The notes: a model not told the origin generated them from the sequence alone. Shown: positions 1-7,359, numbered from the stretch's first letter. The stretch: 13,180 nt of DNA from Clostridiales bacterium (GCA_009783415.1 WRHF01000081.1:1-13180), one strand, 5' to 3'. Numbers and translations: made by a program.

Positions 1-877
1 CGATTGTAGCCTGGATATTGGTGGGGTAGGCTGCCTGATTATTAGGATGCATTGTTTTCCATGAAAATCCGTGATCATACTCTGTTTGCCGTTCAAAAGA
101 GGCAAATTGGAGCATGCAGCGCTCCAGGGCATTGCGTTCTTTCGATATTTCCAGAATAACCGGCTCGGCGCCCATTGTTTCCCGAAAAAGGGCGGTCAAG
201 TCATTACTTAGACTAAAATGATTTTCCGATTTCGCAACCAAAGTCATCCGGGCCAAGTTTAAGGTGATTCGCTCCAGCTTGTTTCGGTTTTTGCGAAAGG
301 CGGCGCATTGGAGGCGGAATTTGTTATCCCGCGGGGAATAGCAAAGCTTATAAGGATGATACTGGCGTTTGCTCCGGCTGCCCTTCGGACTGTCATATTC
401 AATGATCAATGGGCTTTGCTCTTTGATTGCTTGTAAAATAGTCTTAAACCGGGATCCATAACCGGCATCCTCATAATCATCCCCGTCCAAATGGCGGTCA
501 TAAATGTGAAAATCATCGCTATTAAACAGAGGCGGGGTATCCGCAAGGGATTCCTCTAATTCGGCATATGATTCTTGATCCAGAAACAACTTGAGCCGCG
601 AATCATTAAGCAAGGATCTTAACCATGACCTTTCCAGGCCGGATAAAGGTCTTTTTATTTCCCCTGATATTTTGGAGTAGTACAAGTCGCCTCTCATTTC
701 TAAAAAACTCCATTCGCCGGAAAACAATGCCGGCAGTAAATGAAAGGTGCTGTCGTAAAAGCCATTGTCTCTGACTAATTCTTCGATCTTGGCTTTGGTC
801 AGGCCATTTTTCGCTTGCTCTAAAATCCGGGCAATCACGGTGAAATAACAACCGTAGACTTCCGAAAACAGTTCCAT
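1..877 (-). CDS. WYL-domain protein, paralog 2. The start is at 877-875 and the gene runs off the window start, so at least 292 aa are present and the C-terminus is missing.
   Basis: I translated the minus-strand frame by hand from ATG 877-875 down to position 1 and found no stop: MELFSEVYGCYFTVIARILEQAKNGLTKAKIEELVRDNGF...QYHPYKLCYSPRDNKFRLQCAAFRKNRNKLERITLNLARM... The segment PYKL..NKFRL..AAFRKNR..ERITL aligns with the WYL core of the upstream paralog (PLKI..GRRYV..YSFRKRR..FRLDYI). The start ATG overlaps the upstream gene's TGA stop as TGATG. An SD-like GGCGGTGA lies 6 nt upstream. The ORF track missed this gene because there is no in-window stop. The track's 93-aa ORF 606..887 is an out-of-frame artifact of it. 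Confidence 0.6.
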   Translation of the reverse strand, partial: MELFSEVYGCYFTVIARILEQAKNGLTKAKIEELVRDNGFYDSTFHLLPALFSGEWSFLEMRGDLYYSKISGEIKRPLSGLERSWLRSLLNDSRLKLFLDQESYAELEESLADTPPLFNSDDFHIYDRHLDGDDYEDAGYGSRFKTILQAIKEQSPLIIEYDSPKGSRSKRQYHPYKLCYSPRDNKFRLQCAAFRKNRNKLERITLNLARMTLVAKSENHFSLSNDLTALFRETMGAEPVILEISKERNALERCMLQFASFERQTEYDHGFSWKTMHPNNQAAYPTNIQATI

Positions 878-2118
878 CAAGAATCACCGCCTTCTCTTGC
901 GGCAGCTATGCCATACATATGTGCCATGCGGTTAATATCGCTGAAAAATCGTTTAACTACCGCTTCGTTTGTGCCTTCCAAACCAATAATACGGCCGGTA
1001 AAGGTTTTGATCCACGGTACTATATCAGTAGAATCGAACATCTCTTTGGTATATAAAAATGTATTGTCATCAAGTCGCTTCAGCTCGCCGCCCTGGCCCT
1101 CGCGCTTGATCCGGTCAATGATATATTGTTCATGCCGCTCATCAATACAAAGCTTCATGCTGATAGTTTCCAAGCGGTGGATACCGCCAAAAGAAACGCC
1201 CCAGACCTTGTCCAGATTGTTGTTAAGTCTTTCTTTCAATTCAGCTGCAAAATCGACCTCTTTATCGACCTTGACCGACTTGATGTAATCCAGGCGAAAG
1301 GTATTAAAGCGCCGCTTACGAAATGAATACATGCAAACATACCGCCGCCCGGTCCCGGCGCTGACAAATATTTTTAGGGGAAGGGCATGAACGATAATGC
1401 TATTGCTGCTGCGGATGCTTTGATTGGCAAAAAATACCGAACGGTTTTGCCGGATGGCCGAGAGCAAATCAAAAAGAATCCCGTCCTCTAATGTATGGGC
1501 GATGTAGTAATGCTTGAAGGCGAACAAATCGTTATCTTGATTTTCACTATCCAGAATATAGCTGCCGATTTCCCCAAAGGGCGCTGCGCCTTGAAAAAAC
1601 TTGACCGCGTCAATCAGTTTCGGCGTCAAGGGGATATTCTGCGGATTTATACTGTAAACAAAGGCCCTGCCCTGCTTTTCTTGCCTGAGCATCCCCAACT
1701 TAACATACTCTTTGCACTTATTCCTGACGGTCTGGGCATCAAAGATCATTTCACTTTTATCGCAAATAAAATCGGTGAGCTCGTCCACAGTCATAGGCGC
1801 GGCTTGGAGGGCGTCCAGAATACAAAAGTGCAGCACTATATCGTTTGCAGTGAAGCTTTTGGATTTCCAGGCGGCATAAAGAGGATTGAGCGGGATATGG
1901 GCGCAGTCAACGGAAATAAAAGATGATTTGTTGCCGCTTTTGTAATCCCATTTCATATATTCACCCAGATAACTTTCACAGCGGCGCTTTTCATTATCAT
2001 AAGTACGGGACGACTTTTTGGTGAAATCGGCGCGCGATTTAAAACCATATACATAAAAATCACGCATATAGTCCCGGATTTTATCGAAATTTTTTATTAG
2101 TTCAGAAAAATCGGACAT
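877..2118 (-). CDS. WYL-domain protein, paralog 1 (about 413 aa), a putative ligand- or RNA-sensing transcriptional regulator transcribed divergently from rtcB.
   Basis: The track ORF is 877..2208 but starts on TTG. The first ATG (2118-2116, MSDFSELIKNF...) has a weak SD-like AGGCAAGG upstream. The C-terminal half contains a WYL-like core, PLKIFVSAGTGRRYVCMYSFRKRRFNTFRLDYIKSVKV, which matches the WYL pattern (..GRWYL..ay....R.FRldRI). The C-terminal tail resembles a WCX extension (VPWIKTFTGRIIGLEG). Confidence 0.7.
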   Translation of the reverse strand: MSDFSELIKNFDKIRDYMRDFYVYGFKSRADFTKKSSRTYDNEKRRCESYLGEYMKWDYKSGNKSSFISVDCAHIPLNPLYAAWKSKSFTANDIVLHFCILDALQAAPMTVDELTDFICDKSEMIFDAQTVRNKCKEYVKLGMLRQEKQGRAFVYSINPQNIPLTPKLIDAVKFFQGAAPFGEIGSYILDSENQDNDLFAFKHYYIAHTLEDGILFDLLSAIRQNRSVFFANQSIRSSNSIIVHALPLKIFVSAGTGRRYVCMYSFRKRRFNTFRLDYIKSVKVDKEVDFAAELKERLNNNLDKVWGVSFGGIHRLETISMKLCIDERHEQYIIDRIKREGQGGELKRLDDNTFLYTKEMFDSTDIVPWIKTFTGRIIGLEGTNEAVVKRFFSDINRMAHMYGIAAAREGGDS

Positions 2119-2278
2119 AACCTTGCCTAAATCAAATTCATAGGTACTTGTACAATGTGAAATATAACACAAATTCGACAAATTTGCAAGAAAATCTATG
2201 ATTCGCAAACTTTTTTAAATGATAATGAAAGCCATTCTTGGTAAACTAATCAGAGAAAAGCACAAGGGGTTGATAATT
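2119..2278. promoter_or_regulatory. Divergent intergenic control region between the WYL-protein gene and rtcB.
   Basis: This is a 160-bp AT-rich spacer between divergent start codons. It contains the palindromes GTACTTGTAC (2144-2153) and CAAATTTG (2179-2186), and an imperfect inverted repeat CTTGTACA..TTTGCAAG. The rtcB SD AAGGGG lies at 2264-2269. Confidence 0.35.
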
Positions 2279-3511
2279 ATGTTTGTATTGCACAACGAAA
2301 ATAACAAGGCGCCGATTAAAATGTGGCTGCCGGATCAAACTTATGCCGATGAGCTGTGCCTGGAACAGGCGCTGAATCTTGCCAACCTCCCATTTATATA
2401 TAAATGGGTCTGTTTAATGCCGGATACACATGCAGGGATGGGAATGCCGATCGGCGGAGTTATAGCGACTACAGATGTGATAATCCCCAATGCGGTGGGT
2501 GTTGACATCGGTTGCGGTATGGCTTTTGTAGGAACCGATATCAGGCTTGAGGAAATCCGCGGGATCATGACCGGCAACGGGTCAATTATTCAGGGAATGA
2601 TCGGCGATATTCTGCGCAATATCCCGGTGGGCTTTAATCATCATAAAAAAATCCAAAGCTGTACCACCTTGGACGATGCCCTGGAATCAATGAATAAGTA
2701 TGAAGCCAATCCCGAGCTTTGCGAGCAAATCGAAGCGGGCTATTATCAGGTAGGAACGCTTGGCGGAGGAAACCATTTTATTGAACTGCAAGAGGATGAT
2801 GAGGGTTATCTGGGCATCATGGTCCATTCCGGCAGCCGCAACTTCGGCAAACAGGTCTGTGATTATTTTCACAATACCGCCCGTGAACTCAACCGCAAAT
2901 GGTATTCCGAAGTACCCCAGGAATGGAGACTGGCTTTCTTGCCGGTGGACAGCAAAGAGGGAAAGCAATATATCAATTGGATGAATCTGGCCCTGGACTT
3001 CGCCGCTGAAAACCGGACCAAAATGATGCTAGCCGTATCTGCGATCGTTGAAAAGTGGATCAATAAACATACAGATATCAGATTCAGCTACACCGCTGAA
3101 ATCAATTGCCATCATAATTATGCCGCTCTTGAAAATCATTATCGCAAAAATGTCTGGGTGCACCGCAAAGGCGCTACCCGGGCAAGAGCAGGAGAGCTTG
3201 CAGTAATCCCCGGCGCCATGGGTTCATACAGCTATGTAGTGGAAGGTCTGGGCAACGAAATAAGCTTTTGCTCATCTTCCCACGGAGCCGGTCGCAGCTA
3301 CTCCCGTAAGGGTGCAATGGAAAAATTTACCACACAGGAAGTCATGCTTGACCTGCAAAAGCAAGGTGTAGTTCTTGGTAAGCATAACAAAGACGATGTA
3401 GCCGAGGAAAGCCGCTTCGCCTATAAAAATATAGACGAGGTCATGGAAAATCAAAAAGACCTCGTAAAACCAATTAAGAGGCTCAAAACCCTGGGGGTAG
3501 TTAAGGGGTAG
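2279..3511 (+). CDS. rtcB: RNA 3'-phosphate / 5'-OH ligase RtcB.
   Basis: The protein shows NKAPIKMW...PFIYKWVCLMPDTHAGMGMPIGGV, GGGNHFIEL, CHHNYAA and SHGAGR, which are the canonical RtcB metal-site and active-site motifs. It aligns with E. coli RtcB from TENAPVKMW onward. I chose ATG 2279 (MFVLHNENNKAPIKMW) because it has the SD AAGGGG 9 nt upstream and gives 410 aa, against 408 aa for E. coli. The track's 2219 start adds 20 unsupported residues. Confidence 0.92.
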   Translation: MFVLHNENNKAPIKMWLPDQTYADELCLEQALNLANLPFIYKWVCLMPDTHAGMGMPIGGVIATTDVIIPNAVGVDIGCGMAFVGTDIRLEEIRGIMTGNGSIIQGMIGDILRNIPVGFNHHKKIQSCTTLDDALESMNKYEANPELCEQIEAGYYQVGTLGGGNHFIELQEDDEGYLGIMVHSGSRNFGKQVCDYFHNTARELNRKWYSEVPQEWRLAFLPVDSKEGKQYINWMNLALDFAAENRTKMMLAVSAIVEKWINKHTDIRFSYTAEINCHHNYAALENHYRKNVWVHRKGATRARAGELAVIPGAMGSYSYVVEGLGNEISFCSSSHGAGRSYSRKGAMEKFTTQEVMLDLQKQGVVLGKHNKDDVAEESRFAYKNIDEVMENQKDLVKPIKRLKTLGVVKG

Positions 3512-3665
3512 TGCCTTATAGGTAATCGGTTATTAAGGCGTTACAGCCTTATATAAATGCTTGTTTTGTCCTATGCTAGGGGTTTGTCCAAAACGCCCTT
3601 GCGGCGCCGGGGATTTTATCTATCCGGTGTATCGGGCAAAATGGCGAGGCTCCGTAAACGGGGCA

Positions 3666-3740
3666 CCAATGACAGCACGGGGGTTCGATTCCCCCACCCT
3701 AAAAAAAGGGTTAGCTCAATCGGCAGAGCATGTCTCTTGG
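3666..3740 (+). ncRNA. Circularly permuted tRNA-like fold (tRNA-mimic core) directly downstream of rtcB.
   Basis: The elements occur in this order. T-arm: GGGGG-TTCGATT-CCCCC (3679-3695). Acceptor-like 5-bp hairpin: ACCCT-AAAAAA-AGGGT (3696-3711), capped by an A6 loop. Then TA (U8/A9-like), followed by a D-arm GCTC-AATCGGCA-GAGC (3714-3729) with the GG dinucleotide in the D-loop. Flanking strands 3671-3674 GACA with 3731-3734 TGTC, and 3666-3669 CCAA with 3737-3740 TTGG, pair to form a helix in the anticodon-stem position. A 4-nt variable-region analog GCAC lies before the T-stem. This is the arrangement expected when tRNA ends are moved to the anticodon stem. Confidence 0.5.
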
Positions 3741-3805
3741 ATTAAGCTGATAACTTAATCACCAACGGTCAGCGAGTTATCGCCGAGGTTCGAATCCTCA
3801 CTACA

Positions 3806-3830: not shown

Positions 3831-3989
3831 AAATGACGGAAACTGAAAATGTCCCGCAAAGGAACACATCAACTTTGCAACATCCGGCTTGCCAGTGACG
3901 AAAGGGATACCGCCTGTTTGGGTTCTGCCCCATAGTATTTCCTGCGGGAAGTTCACGCCGGACAGGATTTCAGGCAGCTTAACATTTGT

Positions 3990-4014
3990 CCCGCAAGACG
4001 AATGCGGGCATTTT
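3990..4014 (+). terminator. Intrinsic terminator or attenuator hairpin 40 nt upstream of the SPFH gene.
   Basis: Stem CCCGCA-AGACGAA-TGCGGG (6 bp, 5 GC), then CATTTTC. The 5' strand TGTCCCGCAAG duplicates TGTCCCGCAAAG at 3849-3860. Both copies can pair with CCTGCGGGAAG (3940-3950), giving mutually exclusive structures. Confidence 0.5.
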
Positions 4015-4054
4015 CAGGGGAAGTCAAGTAAAAACAAAGAAAGAAGGCATCAAA

Positions 4055-5149
4055 ATGAAAATCATCATCAAAGAAAATGTACGGGGTTTCCTGTTTAAAA
4101 ACGGAGTGTACCGCAAAATGCTCTTCCCCGGCAAGCATAACATTAAAAAGTTCCTGGGTGAAACCTTTGCCCTGGTAGATGTTTCTAAACCTGTTGAGCC
4201 GGCCAATGTTGACATCGCTGTTTTGCTTCGCGACCAAGAGTTTGCAGACAGTGTCACCCGCATTGATGTACCGAACGGTCATATCGCTATCCACATGGAG
4301 GATAAGCGTATCGTCGGTACTCTGAAGCCCGGTACATATTGCTATTGGAACTGCTATCGTGAGCACACCTTTAAGCTGGTCGACATTGCCAAGGCAGAAA
4401 TCAGCGATCTTTCGCCCGAACAGCTGATGACTATACCCCGCAATCTCTATTTCAAAGTGGAAGTACCGCAAGGCGAAGCAGGCCTCTTGTTTTTTGATGG
4501 GAAGTTTGAACGCCCACTGGAAAGCGGAAGTTATTACTTCTGGAATAATATGCAGAAAATTACTTGCCAGAGCGTAGATTTGCGCTCCCAGCTGTTGGAT
4601 ATTGCCGGCCAGGAGATCTTAACAGCCGACAAAGTTTCATTGCGCATCAACTTTGTCTGTTCCTATAAAATCACCGACGCCGTTAAGATCGTCAGTGAGA
4701 TCAAGGACTACAAAGCCCAGATCTACACCCTGACCCAGCTGGCTCTCCGCGAATATATCGGCAAATTCCGTTTTGATGAGCTTTTGGAGCAAAAAGACTC
4801 CATTGCCGCCTTTGTCTTGAAGCAGCTTCAAGCCAAGCAGGACGCCTTGTTTGTCGAATTTTCCGAGGCGGGTTTAAAGGACATCATCCTGCCCGGCGAA
4901 ATCCGCGATATCATGAATACCGTACTGGTCGCCGAGAAAAATGCCCAGGCCAACGTAATTGCCCGCCGCGAAGAGGTAGCATCAACCAGAAGCTTGCTTA
5001 ATACTGCTAAGCTGATGGAAGAAAATACCACTTTGTACAAGCTGAAAGAGCTTGAATATCTGGAAAAAATCTGCGACAAAGTGGGCAATATCTCAGTTGG
5101 CGGCGGAAATTTGTTGAGCGAGCTTAGAGAAATAATGAGCACTAGGTAA
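4055..5149 (+). CDS. SPFH/band-7 (stomatin/prohibitin-like) domain protein without an N-terminal transmembrane segment, 364 aa.
   Basis: I chose the start MKIIIKENV at 4055, with SD AAGAAGG 7 nt upstream. The track's 3986 start lacks an SD. The protein shows the SPFH pattern: E..G.LF.NG.....L.PGKH at the N-terminus, QEILTADKVSLRINFVCSYKITD, then a long helical region ILPGEIRDIMNTVLVAEKNAQANVIARREEVAS...LYKLKELEYLEKI typical of band-7 C-termini. The N-terminal beta segment appears twice (VRGFLFKNGVYRKMLFPGKH and EAGLLFFDGKFERPLESGSYYFWN). Confidence 0.85.
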   Translation: MKIIIKENVRGFLFKNGVYRKMLFPGKHNIKKFLGETFALVDVSKPVEPANVDIAVLLRDQEFADSVTRIDVPNGHIAIHMEDKRIVGTLKPGTYCYWNCYREHTFKLVDIAKAEISDLSPEQLMTIPRNLYFKVEVPQGEAGLLFFDGKFERPLESGSYYFWNNMQKITCQSVDLRSQLLDIAGQEILTADKVSLRINFVCSYKITDAVKIVSEIKDYKAQIYTLTQLALREYIGKFRFDELLEQKDSIAAFVLKQLQAKQDALFVEFSEAGLKDIILPGEIRDIMNTVLVAEKNAQANVIARREEVASTRSLLNTAKLMEENTTLYKLKELEYLEKICDKVGNISVGGGNLLSELREIMSTR

Positions 5150-5180
5150 ATTGGGGTATAATAGCTAATCGAAATACAAA

Positions 5181-5218
5181 AAAGTAGCCCTCAGCTCGTC
5201 ACAGTAGTGGGCTACTTT
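5181..5218 (-). terminator. Intrinsic terminator for htpG, possibly acting in both directions.
   Basis: A perfect 10-bp inverted repeat AAAGTAGCCC...GGGCTACTTT with an 18-nt loop. On the minus strand it is followed by TTTTTTGTATTTC, about 95 nt downstream of the htpG stop. On the plus strand, downstream of the SPFH gene, it lacks a U-run. Confidence 0.6.
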
Positions 5219-5310
5219 GCGCATTATTGGACGTAACCGTTTGAGGTTTTGCCCTTTTCTGTATTTATTATACTACGAATTTAATAAAGCTGTCAATGCT
5301 TTTTTTGATT

Positions 5311-7359
5311 CTAGCTCATGAGCTCGCAGATGGAATTGGCGAACGATACCGGGTCTTCGATGGTCAGGCCTTCTATCAGTAAAGCCTGATGATAGAGTAA
5401 CGTGGTATATGTCTTCAATTTCTCCGGATCACTGCCTTCGAGCTTGGTCAAAGCTGCAAATACGGGGTGATTGCCGTTAATCTCCAGGACCCGGTCGGCT
5501 TTTACCTGGTTATCGGTGGGCATGGAATTTAGGACTTTTTCCATTTCTATCGACAAAGGACCGTCGCTGGTCAGGCAGATGGGGTGGCTTTTTAAGCGTT
5601 TGGAAAGCCTTACTTCTTTTACTTTATCGCCCAAGGCCTCTTTCATGGCAGTAAAGAGGTCTTTATGGGTTTCGGCTTGCTCTTTAGTTGCTTCTTTTTC
5701 TTCTTTACTTTCCAAATCCAAGTCCTTATCAGAGACGCTCTTGATGGTTTTTCCCTGATATTCATTAATGATCTTAATGGCAAACTCATCCACATCCTCG
5801 GTCAGGGCTAAAATATCATAGCCTTTATCCAGCACAAGCTCGGTCTGGGGCAATTGGCGGATCCGGCTGATGCTGCTGCCGCAGGCATAATAGATAGTTT
5901 CCTGGCCCTCGGTCATTTTTTCCAAGTACTCCGCCAGGGTCACCATTTTATCTTCCTTCAGAGAATGATAGAGCAATAAATCCTGCAGCTTGTCCTTATC
6001 GGCGCCAAAACTGTTATAAATCCCGAATTTGAGCTGCATGCCAAAGTTTTTAAAGAAACCTTCGTACTTCTCGCGATCATTTTTGAGCAGCTTGAGCAGA
6101 TCCGACTTGATCCGCTTATCCAGACTCTTGGCTATGGCCTTTACCTGGCGGTCCTGCTGCAGCATTTCCCTTGAGATATTCAGGGAAAGATCCGGGGAAT
6201 CCACCAAACCTCTGACAAAGCTGAAACAATCCGGCAGCAGGTCGGCGCATTTTTCCATGATCAAAACCCCGTTGGCATAAAGTTGCAGGCCCTTTTCATA
6301 TTCTTTGCTGTAATAGTTGTAAGGGGTATTCAGAGGTATATAAAGGATCCCGTCATAGCTGATGGTTCCCTCCGCGCTGATATGGCTGTAGGTCAAAGGA
6401 ATCTCGTAATTGGAAAATTTTTCCATATAAAACTGTTCATAATCTTCTCCGTTGACCTCATTTTTATTACGCCGCCAGAGGGGAACCATACTGTTTAGGG
6501 TATCGATTTCCTGGTAATCTTCATATTCCGGCGCTTTTTTGTCGTCGCTATCCTCTGTCGCTTTGGGCCGCCTTTTGGTTAGGGCCATCTTGATGGGGTA
6601 GCGGATATAATCGGAATACTTTTTGACTATGTCCTGAATTTTGTACTGATCCAGATACTGACTGTAATTTTCCTCATCGTGGTTGTCTTTGAGCGCCAGG
6701 ATGATGGTTGTACCAAAGCCCTCTTTTTCATAAGGCTCGATACTATAGCCGTCAGCGCCCTCGGATTGCCAGCGCCAGGCTTCATTACTGCCATAGGCTT
6801 TACTGATCACGGTGATTTCTTTGCTGACCATAAAGGCGGAGTAAAAGCCCACCCCAAACTGACCGATAATATCAATATCAAAACCCGCCTCTTTGGCTTC
6901 ATCCTCTTCAGCTGGTTGAGCAGCTGTTGTTTCCTCTGCAGCATCTAAAGGTGTATCCTGGGACTCGGAAGCACTGTCATCTTCCTCTTCGTTTTCTTCT
7001 TCACCCATTCTTTCCGGCTTGAATTTTTCTAAATTATCCTTGTTTTCCTGTCTGAAATCCATAGTTCCGCTTTTGGCAATAGTACCCAGATTATTTTCCA
7101 GTTCCTCTTTGGTCATACCAAGGCCATTATCCCGAATAGTCAAGGTGCGGTTATCCTTGTCGGCCTCAATAAAAATCTCGAAGTCGCTCCGGTCAAAAGA
7201 CAGCCCGTCTTCGGTCAGGGTTTTGAAATAGAGCTTGTCCATGGCATCGCTGGCATTGGAGATCAGTTCCCGCAAAAAGATTTCTTTGTGGGTATAAATT
7301 GAATTGATCATCAGGCCCAATAAGCGTTTCGATTCCGCCTTAAATGGTTTTTTCTTCAT
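5311..7359 (-). CDS. htpG: Molecular chaperone HtpG (Hsp90), 682 aa.
   Basis: The protein shows [27 protein letters not shown], which matches the E. coli HtpG N-terminal ATPase signature, along with GTIAKSGT, a charged linker, and a [12 protein letters not shown]-terminal region. I chose the start at M14 ([17 protein letters not shown] 7359-7357), preceded by GGGGG 7 nt upstream. The track's M1 at 7398 has no SD and would lie inside the CIRCE operator. Confidence 0.9.

Follow-up and report, generated by a model that had tools for sequence, protein, structure and literature searches.

What controls RNA repair in the Clostridia? The question is raised by a 13,180-nucleotide stretch of DNA from a Clostridiales bacterium (GCA_009783415.1, WRHF01000081.1:1-13180; the window, below), in which two WYL-domain genes, WYL1 and WYL2, lie next to the RNA ligase gene rtcB. 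The original prediction was that the pair is divergent from rtcB, and the gene layout confirms this. To our knowledge, the only characterised sensor that couples RNA damage to the induction of RtcB is RtcR, which belongs to the proteobacteria. The WYL pair is very probably a dedicated stress-responsive switch, because it adjoins the RNA-repair operon across hundreds of Clostridia and because the promoter of this operon has a near-invariant 21-bp site. We put at roughly 0.7 the probability that WYL1 and WYL2 together make up a two-subunit transcription factor dedicated to the clostridial RNA-repair operon, a joint reading that takes in a heterodimer, binding to the site, a nucleic-acid ligand and activation.

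Gene Organization of the Locus

The features of the locus are collected in Table 1. WYL1 lies within a longer minus-strand ORF (877..2208). The existence of a second gene that the ORF track does not list was also confirmed; WYL2 is missing from the ORF list because its frame runs off the end of the window. The predicted TGATG overlap is present as well, with the WYL1 stop codon (TGA, 879-877) and the WYL2 ATG having one base in common. This overlap and the Shine-Dalgarno sequence in the window, and the mostly overlapping or abutting genes across 80 related loci (the junction is -17 to +6 nt in 65 of them), agree with the translational coupling that had been proposed. The two genes are not one frameshifted gene, since separate ORFs with their own starts, each encoding a complete HTH-WYL-WCX protein, are present in all 80 loci.

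Table 1. Features of the WYL1-WYL2 and rtcB locus, in window coordinates.
Feature	Position	Strand	Details
WYL2, 5' part only	1..877	-	ATG 877-875; frame open to base 1; 292 codons
Translational coupling signal	875..894	-	Shine-Dalgarno GAAGGCGGTG at 894-885 within the WYL1 3' end, plus TGATG 879-875
WYL1	877..2118	-	413 aa from conserved ATG at 2118 (translation)
Predicted sigma-70-type promoter of the WYL1-WYL2 operon	2161..2189	-	TTGCAA, 17 nt, TATATT, upstream TG (promoter scan)
Candidate operator	2202..2222	+	TTCGCAAACTTTTTTAAATGA; non-palindromic, 21 bp; about -52 to -32 of the rtcB promoter
Extended -10 of the rtcB promoter	2239..2247	+	TGG TAAACT, 16 nt after the operator
rtcB RNA ligase, first operon gene	2279..3511	+	410 aa from ATG 2279; Pfam RtcB 378 bits
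tRNA-like / Y-RNA-like non-coding RNA region	3560..3805	+	between rtcB and the SPFH gene
SPFH/Band-7 protein, last module gene	3986..5149	+	Pfam Band_7 112 bits

Complete WYL2 proteins are 311-368 aa long in the 76 loci that have the whole gene on the contig. Because identity breaks at window bases 1-72, which do not align to a contig carrying a 96%-identical WYL2, the WYL2 sequence can be trusted only for residues 1-268 of about 324 (window 74-877). Judged by this alignment, the last 24 WYL2 codons in the window (bases 1-72) are foreign sequence. As for the promoter of the pair, comparable -35/-10 pairs precede WYL1 in many of the orthologous loci, with at least nine of 12 matches in 24 of 54.

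The start of rtcB is most likely at 2279 because homologues align from residue 1 there, an AAGGGG ribosome-binding site is present, and the alternative start at 2219 is inside the operator and upstream of the predicted -10. Therefore, the intergenic region is 2119-2278, which agrees with the original prediction, and the rtcB transcript is predicted to start at about 2254.

The non-coding region after rtcB has two sub-threshold Rfam matches, to YrlA (3678-3729, E 9e-4) and to tRNA (3710-3801, E 0.15); ARAGORN and Rfam at gathering thresholds gave no match anywhere in the window. At this sub-threshold level, the RNA matches the type published as 'b7a-tRNA', and with it the order rtcB, tRNA-like RNA and SPFH/Band-7 is present on one strand in the window. 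In most of the loci the SPFH/Band-7 gene follows rtcB and the gene order is kept. Downstream of the operator, 33 of 71 loci have a T-loop string, and have it strand-specifically; the tRNA-like RNA is probably a member of the regulon. An RtcR-type gene, predicted to be missing, is indeed absent among the window ORFs (Pfam, NCBIfam), and a sigma-54 promoter (TGGCAC-N5-TTGC-like) was not found in 2119-2278.

The Two WYL Proteins

The strings that had been quoted as WYL cores are found verbatim in both translations. Both proteins also score above the gathering score of the Pfam WYL family (PF13280, 21.8 bits), WYL1 with 27.1 bits and WYL2 with 26.1 bits, and PADLOC WYL models match them too; no NCBIfam model matches either one. 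The Pfam WYL domain is present in 21 of 22 WYL1-family members and in 84 of 118 WYL2-family members, and 48 of the 118 WYL2 relatives have a Pfam WCX domain. There are 3028 WYL1 homologues.

WYL1 consists of a conserved N-terminal region (residues 1-90), possibly a YafY-type wHTH, followed by a wHTH at about 91-157, the WYL domain at 215-284 and a WCX-like C-terminal domain at about 317-401. The order in WYL2 is wHTH, WYL (144-216) and WCX. The AF2 model of WYL1 has a low overall confidence (pLDDT 63.5) and does not resolve the conserved N-terminal 90 residues; its Foldseek matches are PafBC, DriD, CapW and BrxR, with E values of 1e-9 to 1e-6. WYL2, modelled via a 96%-identical orthologue, has a pLDDT of 85 and PafBC as its top match (E 1e-11). 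The alignments of both proteins extend over about 330-355 columns of the PafBC-RNAP complex (9fnd), DriD, CapW and BrxR (E 1e-11 to 1e-6), and PafBC (9fnd) is the best structural match of each. A sequence-only search of PDB chains gave no match with single sequences and marginal matches with profiles. The models thus indicate that WYL1 and WYL2 are wHTH-WYL-WCX transcription factors, with the WCX and N-terminal HTH of WYL1 taken from a low-confidence model.

The two proteins differ in the residues that they conserve. Aligned to the PafB WYL domain, WYL1 has counterparts of Y196 and R211 and also a basic cluster (mapped to PMC11804915); in a manual alignment to PafB, WYL2 keeps the R214 equivalent alone. 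Conserved Arg, Lys and Gln residues are present in the two helix-turn-helix regions of WYL1, and the WYL2 helix-turn-helix is without conserved basic residues.

The original prediction had considered WYL1 and WYL2 to be paralogs because of similar N-termini. BLASTP between the two gives an E value of 1.8, and a profile-profile comparison (hhalign) is significant for the WYL domains (E = 1.3e-5) and not for the N-termini (E = 0.08). Since the alignment is limited to the WYL domains, the claim of similar N-termini is unsupported, and recent paralogs of that kind are ruled out.

A Near-Invariant Site in the rtcB Promoter

The candidate operator has the consensus TTCGCA-N3-TTTTTTAWATGA, and its last four bases fall at the start of the -35 position. 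It is present as a single exact copy in the window, where 0.01 would be expected, and in all 55 of the rtcB/WYL intergenic regions, though the proteins are only 46-75% identical. By inspection, it is self-complementary at six of its 21 positions. A search for a palindromic operator in 2100-2300 of this window gave one weak 17-nt inverted repeat with 71% complementarity.

The distance from the site to the promoter is also fixed. In 65 of the 70 unique promoters, 39 of them with TGn, the motif is followed at exactly 19 nt by a TAnnnT sequence, and the spacer is not conserved. Therefore, with the -10 at a fixed distance, the motif is centred near -42. One might ask if the motif and the -10 are simply the -35/-10 pair of an alternative sigma factor; this is ruled out by the 34 nt from TTCGCA to the -10.

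A metagenome scan produced 116 exact matches to the motif, 66 of which are inside an RNA-repair module. None of the other 50 has a -10 at the right distance and they are without module genes, and so, we treat them as chance matches. On the same grounds, these metagenome matches give no sign of a wider regulon beyond the module.

Conservation and Linkage across Genomes

Linkage was followed in 80 related loci, each from a species-level genome. WYL2 comes directly after WYL1 in all of them, and from this gene arrangement we consider WYL1-WYL2 to be an obligate, translationally coupled pair. The pair is linked to the RNA-repair module in 70 of the 80 loci. In 55 of the 80, rtcB is divergent from and adjacent to the pair; 15 more loci with the operator have rtcB elsewhere on the locus, the tRNA-like RNA and SPFH gene, a Ro-like DUF2828/DUF7788 gene or a replaced gene. 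The remaining 10 loci have the pair without rtcB or the motif within 6 kb, and two of these 10 have less than 200 nt of upstream sequence.

Where the operator is present, it travels with the target operon and not with the genes of the WYL pair. It remains beside rtcB in loci that have rtcB away from the pair, and in loci without rtcB it remains beside the tRNA-like RNA accompanied by an SPFH or Ro-like gene. Some metagenome contigs have the motif and rtcB without an adjacent WYL pair. These contigs and the 10 loci above speak against the proposed link, and for them we assume that regulation occurs in trans. The sampled regulon consists only of RtcB, the tRNA-like RNA and SPFH or Ro-like genes, with the motif preceding no DNA-repair gene in this sample. 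The WYL pair system is found in no fewer than 582 species-level genomes, most of them from Clostridia, with Lachnospiraceae of the human gut included.

Proposed Mechanism and Alternatives

The original prediction has held up in part: the two proteins are wHTH-WYL-WCX factors by their models, they form an obligate coupled pair, gene order and the operator tie them to rtcB, and there is neither an RtcR gene in the window nor a sigma-54 promoter upstream of rtcB. Close paralogy and membership of the PafBC family proper are not supported. Building on the part that stands, we propose that WYL1 and WYL2 form a PafBC-like heterodimer and that this complex binds the 21-bp candidate operator. WYL1 would supply the DNA-reading heads because of the conserved Arg, Lys and Gln in its two helix-turn-helix regions; the WYL2 helix-turn-helix may contact the partner or sigma region 4 instead of DNA. 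A nucleic-acid ligand bound across both WYL domains would switch the complex on, and this ligand could be RNA fragments or ends from ribonuclease damage, or ssDNA. The activated complex would then stimulate sigma-A RNA polymerase, in either a class-II or a sigma-adaptation manner, and induce RtcB, the tRNA-like RNA and the SPFH protein. The pair would thereby take the role that RtcR, a CARF-domain activator, has in the proteobacteria.

The identity of the ligand is where the strongest competing explanation arises, and we consider it a serious one, though short of an even chance: the pair may sense ssDNA from DNA damage or phage replication, with RNA repair induced within the response to genotoxic stress or phage. 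The ligand is ssDNA and not RNA in all HTH-WYL-WCX regulators for which both structure and ligand have been worked out (PafBC, DriD and CapW), the PafB-like Tyr and Arg positions are kept in WYL1, and the proteobacterial rtc operon responds to DNA-damaging conditions (PMC9879122). Against this stand a sampled regulon made up of RNA-repair parts only, with no DNA-repair gene behind the motif, and the prediction that RNA fragments with cyclic ends are sensed by WYL domains (PMC9503650).

A second alternative accepts the site and reverses its sign. Like BrxR or CapW, the pair could be a repressor that sits on -52 to -32, occludes the -35/UP region of a functional extended -10 promoter and is freed by its ligand. 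The end of the operator plus two variable bases matches the -35 hexamer TTGACA at three to four of six positions in 50 of 54 promoters; this weak -35, together with TGn in 39 of 70, means that RNA polymerase might need no help, and a promoter that works unaided would point to repression rather than activation. The structural matches include CapW and BrxR, and in some loci, such as L011-L013, 13 nt separate the motif from the WYL1 start codon, so that a complex bound there would prevent transcription of the WYL genes themselves. Yet class-II activators classically bind where this site lies, near -42 and at a strictly kept distance from the -10; repressors usually bind over the -10 or the transcription start. 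Furthermore, PafBC and DriD, the closest two in structure, activate transcription, and the ATGA of the motif is far more invariant than a usual -35 hexamer, while the -10 hexamers vary. We therefore prefer activation and regard repression as somewhat doubtful.

We think it improbable that WYL1 and WYL2 fail to heterodimerise. They could exist as separate homodimers, or one could be a non-DNA-binding modulator of the other, so that their adjacency reflects co-regulation only. PafBC aside, the matched WYL regulators of documented oligomeric state are indeed homodimers, the sequence that WYL1 and WYL2 have in common is only the WYL domain, and the extra wHTH of WYL1 might suffice for DNA binding. 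Against this, the pair co-occurs in 80 of 80 loci with overlapping or abutting genes, and a single conserved, asymmetric site is found per promoter, with no sign of a conserved palindrome. The motif is also duplicated as a whole unit, 41 bp away, in loci L030 and L032, with a weaker second copy in L034.

Finally, it is very hard to believe that the motif belongs to another factor, be it a global regulator or an alternative sigma factor, and that the WYL pair is a mere neighbour of rtcB. In favour of this view, the operator is a candidate drawn from sequence, its AT-rich composition includes a T-tract with the potential to serve as an UP element, and it accompanies rtcB on some contigs without adjacent WYL genes. 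Against it, the motif and the pair are in the same intergenic region in 55 of 55 cases from several families of Clostridia, the spacing of the motif fits no -35/-10 pair of any sigma factor, and exact motifs with a correctly spaced -10 were seen in the metagenomes in the RNA-repair module only.

If the heterodimeric activator is correct, a more specific version can be put forward tentatively, and we would not bet on it as yet. The pair may be the first RNA-responsive WYL factor, in which two non-equivalent WYL domains jointly bind damaged-RNA ends (e.g., tRNA halves with a 2',3'-cyclic phosphate) or the tRNA-like RNA of the operon itself, and which activates sigma-A RNA polymerase from the -42 site. 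Such a factor would do with WYL domains, and independently, what the RtcR switch does with CARF, and the tRNA-like RNA would give feedback.

Part of this idea has a precedent. PMC9503650, citing Burroughs and Aravind 2016, already states that WYL factors regulate RNA-repair pathways and perhaps sense RNA fragments with cyclic ends. The literature searched on WYL and RNA repair contained no description of the WYL pair, the operator or the promoter architecture; since a later paper of that laboratory cites Burroughs and Aravind 2016 for WYL transcription factors, the WYL link may already be recorded in it. Neither the pairing nor the promoter architecture seems to have been described so far. The system is compact, widespread and testable: two small proteins, one positioned 21-bp site and an output of a ligase, a tRNA-like RNA and an SPFH protein. 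It would show whether WYL domains, which in transcription factors have so far been ssDNA binders, also read RNA damage. Since the same candidate operator precedes them even without rtcB, the locus is also a handle on the still unvalidated 'b7a-tRNA' and on the SPFH and Ro-like partners.

Comparison with Known Systems

RtcR (CARF, AAA+, HTH) is the functional analogue of the pair, being a divergently encoded, ligand-sensing regulator of the rtcB operon (rtcBA, proteobacteria). However, it belongs to an unrelated family and has an unrelated mechanism, CARF plus sigma-54, whereas the promoter here is of the sigma-70-type extended -10 kind. The ligand of RtcR is given in PMC7790460 as tRNA fragments with a 2',3'-cyclic phosphate, and the rtc locus of Pseudomonas aeruginosa also includes an SPFH gene (PMC13086221). 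The operon in the window has exactly the composition of the RtcB / Band-7 / 'b7a-tRNA' system of Burroughs and Aravind 2016, as relayed by bioRxiv 10.1101/312249, and a Ro-like partner swaps in at some of our loci. What that source describes, as far as it is relayed there, is the effector module, to which the regulator pair, the operator and the promoter are added here.

DriD (Caulobacter), CapW and BrxR have the same three-domain architecture and fold, with WYL2 reaching a TM of up to 0.5 to DriD, and they are likewise encoded beside the stress or defence operon that they control. CapW and BrxR repress defence systems and DriD senses ssDNA. All three are single-gene homodimers, whereas the locus described here has two dissimilar subunits and an asymmetric site. 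The accessory protein of Cas13d that is also named WYL1 binds ssRNA through a different design: its N-terminus is a ribbon-helix-helix, and it acts directly on Cas13d as a modulator, not on a promoter as a wHTH-WYL-WCX regulator. It is nevertheless a WYL protein tied to an RNA-targeting system and a weaker structural match (6oaw, E 1e-6 to 4e-5).

The closest relative in design is PafBC, the DNA-damage response activator of Mycobacterium and other Actinobacteria. It is likewise encoded by two adjacent genes, each wHTH-WYL-WCX, an arrangement found here in 80 of 80 loci, and basic residues are likewise kept in its WYL domains. The DNA sites fit this pattern: homodimeric DriD binds a palindrome (PMC10853764), and heterodimeric PafBC binds a non-palindromic promoter element at a fixed position relative to the -10 (PMC8635444), as the candidate operator is. 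The two systems are not orthologous, since the profile match to PafB has an E value of about 0.1 and involves the WYL domain only; this marginal similarity and an operator at -52 to -32 rather than -26 leave membership of the PafBC family proper, as noted above, unsupported. WYL1 is also longer, by about 90 residues, and includes a second wHTH. The PafBC genes are in Actinobacteria at the Pup-proteasome locus, and those described here are in Clostridia with rtcB, SPFH and htpG genes as neighbours. PafBC targets about 150 DNA-damage genes; the target of the WYL pair is an RNA-repair operon. The hybrid promoter of PafBC has a canonical -10, no -35 and an element at -26 (sigma adaptation), and in the clostridial promoter the site is at -52 to -32 and ends like a weak -35, so that the two are alike in principle and not in geometry. 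The locus would also reveal if a two-subunit design in the style of PafBC had an independent origin in the Firmicutes.

Gene Organization

Two reading frames follow one another on the minus strand of window positions 1-2208. The first had been listed as an ORF at 877..2208; aligning it with 21 homologues places its start codon at ATG 2118, which gives a protein of 413 amino acids (WYL1). The WYL2 frame begins at ATG 877-875 and is open through base 1 (292 codons), and nothing but the end of the window kept it off the ORF list. The WYL1 stop codon TGA (879-877) and the WYL2 start codon have one base in common, forming TGATG. The divergent gene is a clear match to RtcB (Pfam, 378 bits), and a 474-nt gap separates its 3' end from an SPFH/Band-7 gene (Pfam). 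Thus, the sequence bears out the original prediction of two tandem, overlapping WYL genes divergent from rtcB, the second of them overlooked because the window ends.

The rtcB gene most likely starts at 2279 rather than 2219, because the orthologues align from that methionine, an AAGGGG ribosome-binding site is present and 2219 is inside the conserved operator. The longest rtcB ORF runs from ATG 2219, upstream of the predicted -10; the conserved start at 2279 gives 410 amino acids. On L081, a sister contig with a 96% identical WYL2, a gene caller took the start equivalent to 2219 (430 amino acids). In the SPFH/Band-7 protein, about 158 N-terminal residues form an extension that no Pfam model matches (3986-4460, plus strand); the start codon is uncertain, being TTG at 3986 here versus a 364-amino acid gene call on the sister contig.

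Every alignment of WYL2 homologues ends at residue 268, and DNA identity to L081 breaks off abruptly at window base 72. This loss of identity marks bases 1-72 as a contig-end artefact or chimera, or else a rearrangement breakpoint, and the last 24 codons of the WYL2 frame as foreign. The homologues indicate a true WYL2 length of about 324 amino acids. A 40-mer from the window start had no occurrences among 200 fetched loci.

Coordinates of predicted features in the window, the WYL1 protein and related loci (L numbers)
Feature	Position	Strand	Basis
Candidate operator	2202-2222	+ (rtcB direction)	Sole copy in window; 0.01 chance matches expected
Extended -10 of rtcB, TGG-TAAACT	2239-2247	+	Fixed spacing to motif
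WYL operon promoter, ordinary sigma-70 type, TTGCAA-17-TATATT	Window		Promoter scan, predicted
WYL2 ribosome-binding site, GAAGGCGGTG	8 nt upstream of WYL2 ATG	-	Sequence
T-arm plus D-arm stretch like Rfam YrlA	3678-3729	+	27 bits, E 9e-4, sub-threshold
tRNA-like fold, 35-nt insert in anticodon region	3710-3801	+	Rfam tRNA E 0.15, sub-threshold
WYL1 wHTH	Residues 91-157		Predicted model
WYL1 WYL domain	Residues 213-287		Predicted model
WYL1 WCX-like domain	Residues 317-401		Predicted model
Ro/TROVE-like gene under operator	L043:3951-5432		
Ro/TROVE-like gene under operator	L050:3949-5418		
Ro/TROVE-like gene under operator	L060:4054-5643		

The Two WYL Proteins

Both proteins exceed the curated Pfam WYL threshold of 21.8 bits (WYL1, 27.1; WYL2, 26.1), so the predicted homology holds. 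PADLOC WYL models also match both, and all of the WYL-core peptide strings quoted originally are found in the translations. The accompanying claim that similar N-termini make them paralogs is not supported: BLASTP of one against the other gives E=1.8, a whole-length profile-profile comparison aligns the WYL region alone, and domain by domain the values are E=1.3e-5 for the WYL domains and E=0.08 for the N-termini. Neither method detected similarity outside the WYL domain. The two proteins have a common fold and domain order, yet they are not recent duplicates.

For WYL2 the protein modelled was a near-identical full-length orthologue; the model is confident (pLDDT 85, pTM 0.67), and its best solved structures, each matched over nearly the whole chain, are PafBC-RNA polymerase (E 1e-11), DriD (TM ~0.5), BrxR and CapW. 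Pfam WCX is found in 48 of 118 WYL2 relatives. Overall confidence is lower for the WYL1 model (pLDDT 63.5), in which three domains are well predicted and which matches PafBC, DriD, BrxR and CapW at E 1e-9 to 1e-6. Its N-terminal 90 residues are very conserved and are not resolved in the model. In our reading, the S-RTYDNEKRR-ESYL stretch within these residues may be a YafY-type HTH recognition helix. The presumed recognition helix of WYL2 (consensus FYDSAFHLLPxLFSGEW) has no conserved basic residue, unlike WYL1, where R38, R45, R46, Q129, R132 and K134 are conserved.

Distribution and a Conserved Candidate Operator

WYL1 has 3028 detectable relatives, and at least 582 species-representative genomes, mostly Clostridia, contain relatives; the clostridial carriers are Lachnospiraceae, Clostridiaceae, Eubacteriaceae, Defluviitaleaceae and Anaerotruncus/Ligaoa-type genera. 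All of the 80 best loci have a WYL2 orthologue immediately after WYL1, with a junction of -17 to +6 nt in 65. It is settled that two non-identical wHTH-WYL-WCX proteins are always encoded together, mostly with translational coupling. The divergent upstream neighbor is rtcB in 55 loci, usually followed by the SPFH gene. Two of these 55 (L001 and L021) have rtcB reduced to about its first 60 codons before the SPFH gene.

A 21-nt motif is present in all 55 rtcB/WYL1 intergenic regions. It reads TCAT-t-TAAAAAA-nnn-TGCGAA on the WYL strand and TTCGCA-N3-TTTTTTAWATGA in the rtcB direction, and it matches at 16 or more of 21 positions in every region and at 21 in many, while the proteins have diverged to 46-75% identity. 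By inspection it is non-palindromic, with 6 of 21 positions self-complementary. In 65 of 70 distinct promoters, once the sites are lined up in the rtcB direction, a TAnnnT hexamer falls exactly 19 nt past the motif; 39 of them have a TGn extension just before the hexamer, and the 16 bases between motif and extended -10 are not conserved. The -10 assigned here predicts a transcription start near 2254, which puts the motif at about -52 to -32, centered near -42. One asymmetric, near-invariant site is thus firmly established as part of the RNA-repair operon promoter. Overall, the WYL pair is tied to this promoter and the RNA-repair module in 70 of the 80 loci. The regulatory unit is real and conserved and very probably functional, and we put the probability that it is the dedicated regulator of the RNA-repair operon at about 80%.

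The distance from the WYL operon's own promoter to the motif differs between loci; in some, only 13 nt separate the motif from the start codon of WYL1, so that autoregulation would be possible there. A weak 17-nt inverted repeat (2187-2203 and 2224-2240, 71% complementary), with its arms on either side of the operator, reaches into the -35 and extended -10 elements of the two divergent promoters. Two loci have two operator copies in the same orientation, 41 bp or about four helical turns apart (L030:1891-1952, L032:5903-5964), and in L030 only the promoter-proximal copy keeps the fixed -10 spacing, an arrangement that suggests cooperative tandem binding. A weaker second copy was seen by eye in L034 around 5870-5931. 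Neither a sigma-54 promoter upstream of rtcB nor an RtcR-type gene was found in the window, in agreement with the original remark that no RtcR is present.

The Candidate Operator Follows the RNA-Repair Genes

Where rtcB lies kilobases from the WYL pair (L037, L040, L056, L058, L067), the motif precedes rtcB and not the WYL genes. Loci that lack rtcB (L006, L026, L028, L036, L038, L078) have it ahead of the tRNA-like RNA and SPFH gene. Three loci (L043, L050, L060) have a DUF2828/DUF7788/VWA (Ro60/TROVE-like) gene behind the motif in place of RtcB-SPFH, with a tRNA-like T-loop in between in L050 and L060; a strict pattern found no T-loop in L043. The scaffold partner of the tRNA-like RNA is interchangeable under one regulator. 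L147 and L181 also have the operator and -10 before a Ro-like gene; L043, L050, L060 and L147 retain the divergent WYL pair, and the L181 sequence is too short to show it.

In L029 (Clostridium muellerianum; 3881-5524, minus strand), the operator and -10 precede a 547-amino acid protein without a Pfam match, which begins with 17 residues from the RtcB N-terminus (MFTIYNKKTKKPIKIWL). It seems that the rtcB 5' end is kept in L029, L001 and L021 while the remainder is replaced or lost.

A scan of metagenome contigs for the exact motif pattern gave 116 loci. Sixty-six are in the RNA-repair module, with the WYL pair divergent wherever the sequence suffices. The other 50 have no module genes and lack a correctly spaced -10 in every case (0/50); we take them to be chance matches. 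Therefore, in the sequence sampled, the regulon is the RNA-repair module alone. About 4 kb past WYL2, L081 encodes an RlaP-family nucleotidyltransferase (PF10127, "RNA ligase-associating Pol-beta"; 13083-13838); a position weight matrix found no operator copy before it.

The stretch from rtcB to the SPFH gene holds two tRNA-like elements (3560-3805, plus strand), neither reported by ARAGORN or by Rfam at gathering thresholds. The T-loop GGTTCGAWTCC occurs downstream of the operator on the same strand in 33 of 71 loci and never on the opposite strand. The elements fit the predicted "b7a-tRNA".

Proposed Heterodimer, Ligand and Mode of Action

The homodimer DriD binds a palindrome (PMC10853764), and the heterodimer PafBC recognizes a non-palindromic element at a fixed distance from the -10 (PMC8635444). 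By this rule, an asymmetric site and two unlike subunits suggest that WYL1 and WYL2 would probably form a PafBC-like heterodimer.

Of all parts of the model, the ligand is the least secure. The PafB residues needed for ssDNA binding have been identified (PMC11804915). In a profile alignment of the WYL1 and PafB WYL domains, Y196 is kept as Y260 and R211 as R275, a basic cluster (K268, R269, R270) lies around R204/R208 and a tyrosine replaces R214. The manually aligned WYL2 keeps only the R214 equivalent (R210). Judging by these residues, both WYL domains could contribute to one shared nucleic-acid groove, as the two PafBC domains do. A regulon made up of RNA-repair parts only speaks for products of RNA damage, and all solved precedents speak for ssDNA; that RNA rather than ssDNA is the signal seems somewhat less likely than not.

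A site that is centered at -42 and keeps strict register with the -10 occupies the classic class-II activator position. This position, together with the two best structural matches being activators, tips our reading slightly towards activation. A BrxR/CapW-style repressor of the same operon is somewhat less likely; in its favor, ATGA plus the next two bases resembles TTGACA at 3-4 of 6 positions in 50 of 54 promoters and an extended -10 is often present.

Comparison with Known Systems

The regulated module is the RtcB/Band-7/"b7a-tRNA" system; a summary in bioRxiv 10.1101/312249 credits its prediction to Burroughs and Aravind (2016). In a later paper (PMC9503650), the same laboratory raised the possibility that transcription factors of the CARF and WYL kinds detect cyclic-phosphate RNAs, and stated that "some of these TFs regulate ... 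RNA repair pathways"; for WYL transcription factors it cites the 2016 work. Therefore, the general idea of WYL factors controlling RNA repair is not new. The literature searched did not contain an obligate pair of subunits of this design, the additional wHTH in WYL1, the operator with its fixed promoter geometry, or an operator that, in loci lacking rtcB, stays with the tRNA-like RNA and the SPFH or Ro-like partner of that RNA.

The WYL pair belongs to the HTH-WYL-WCX class of regulators. It falls outside the PafBC family proper, as there is no orthology and the phylum, the locus and the position of the element are all different, but it is like PafBC in its working principle, and we class it as a functional analogue of RtcR.
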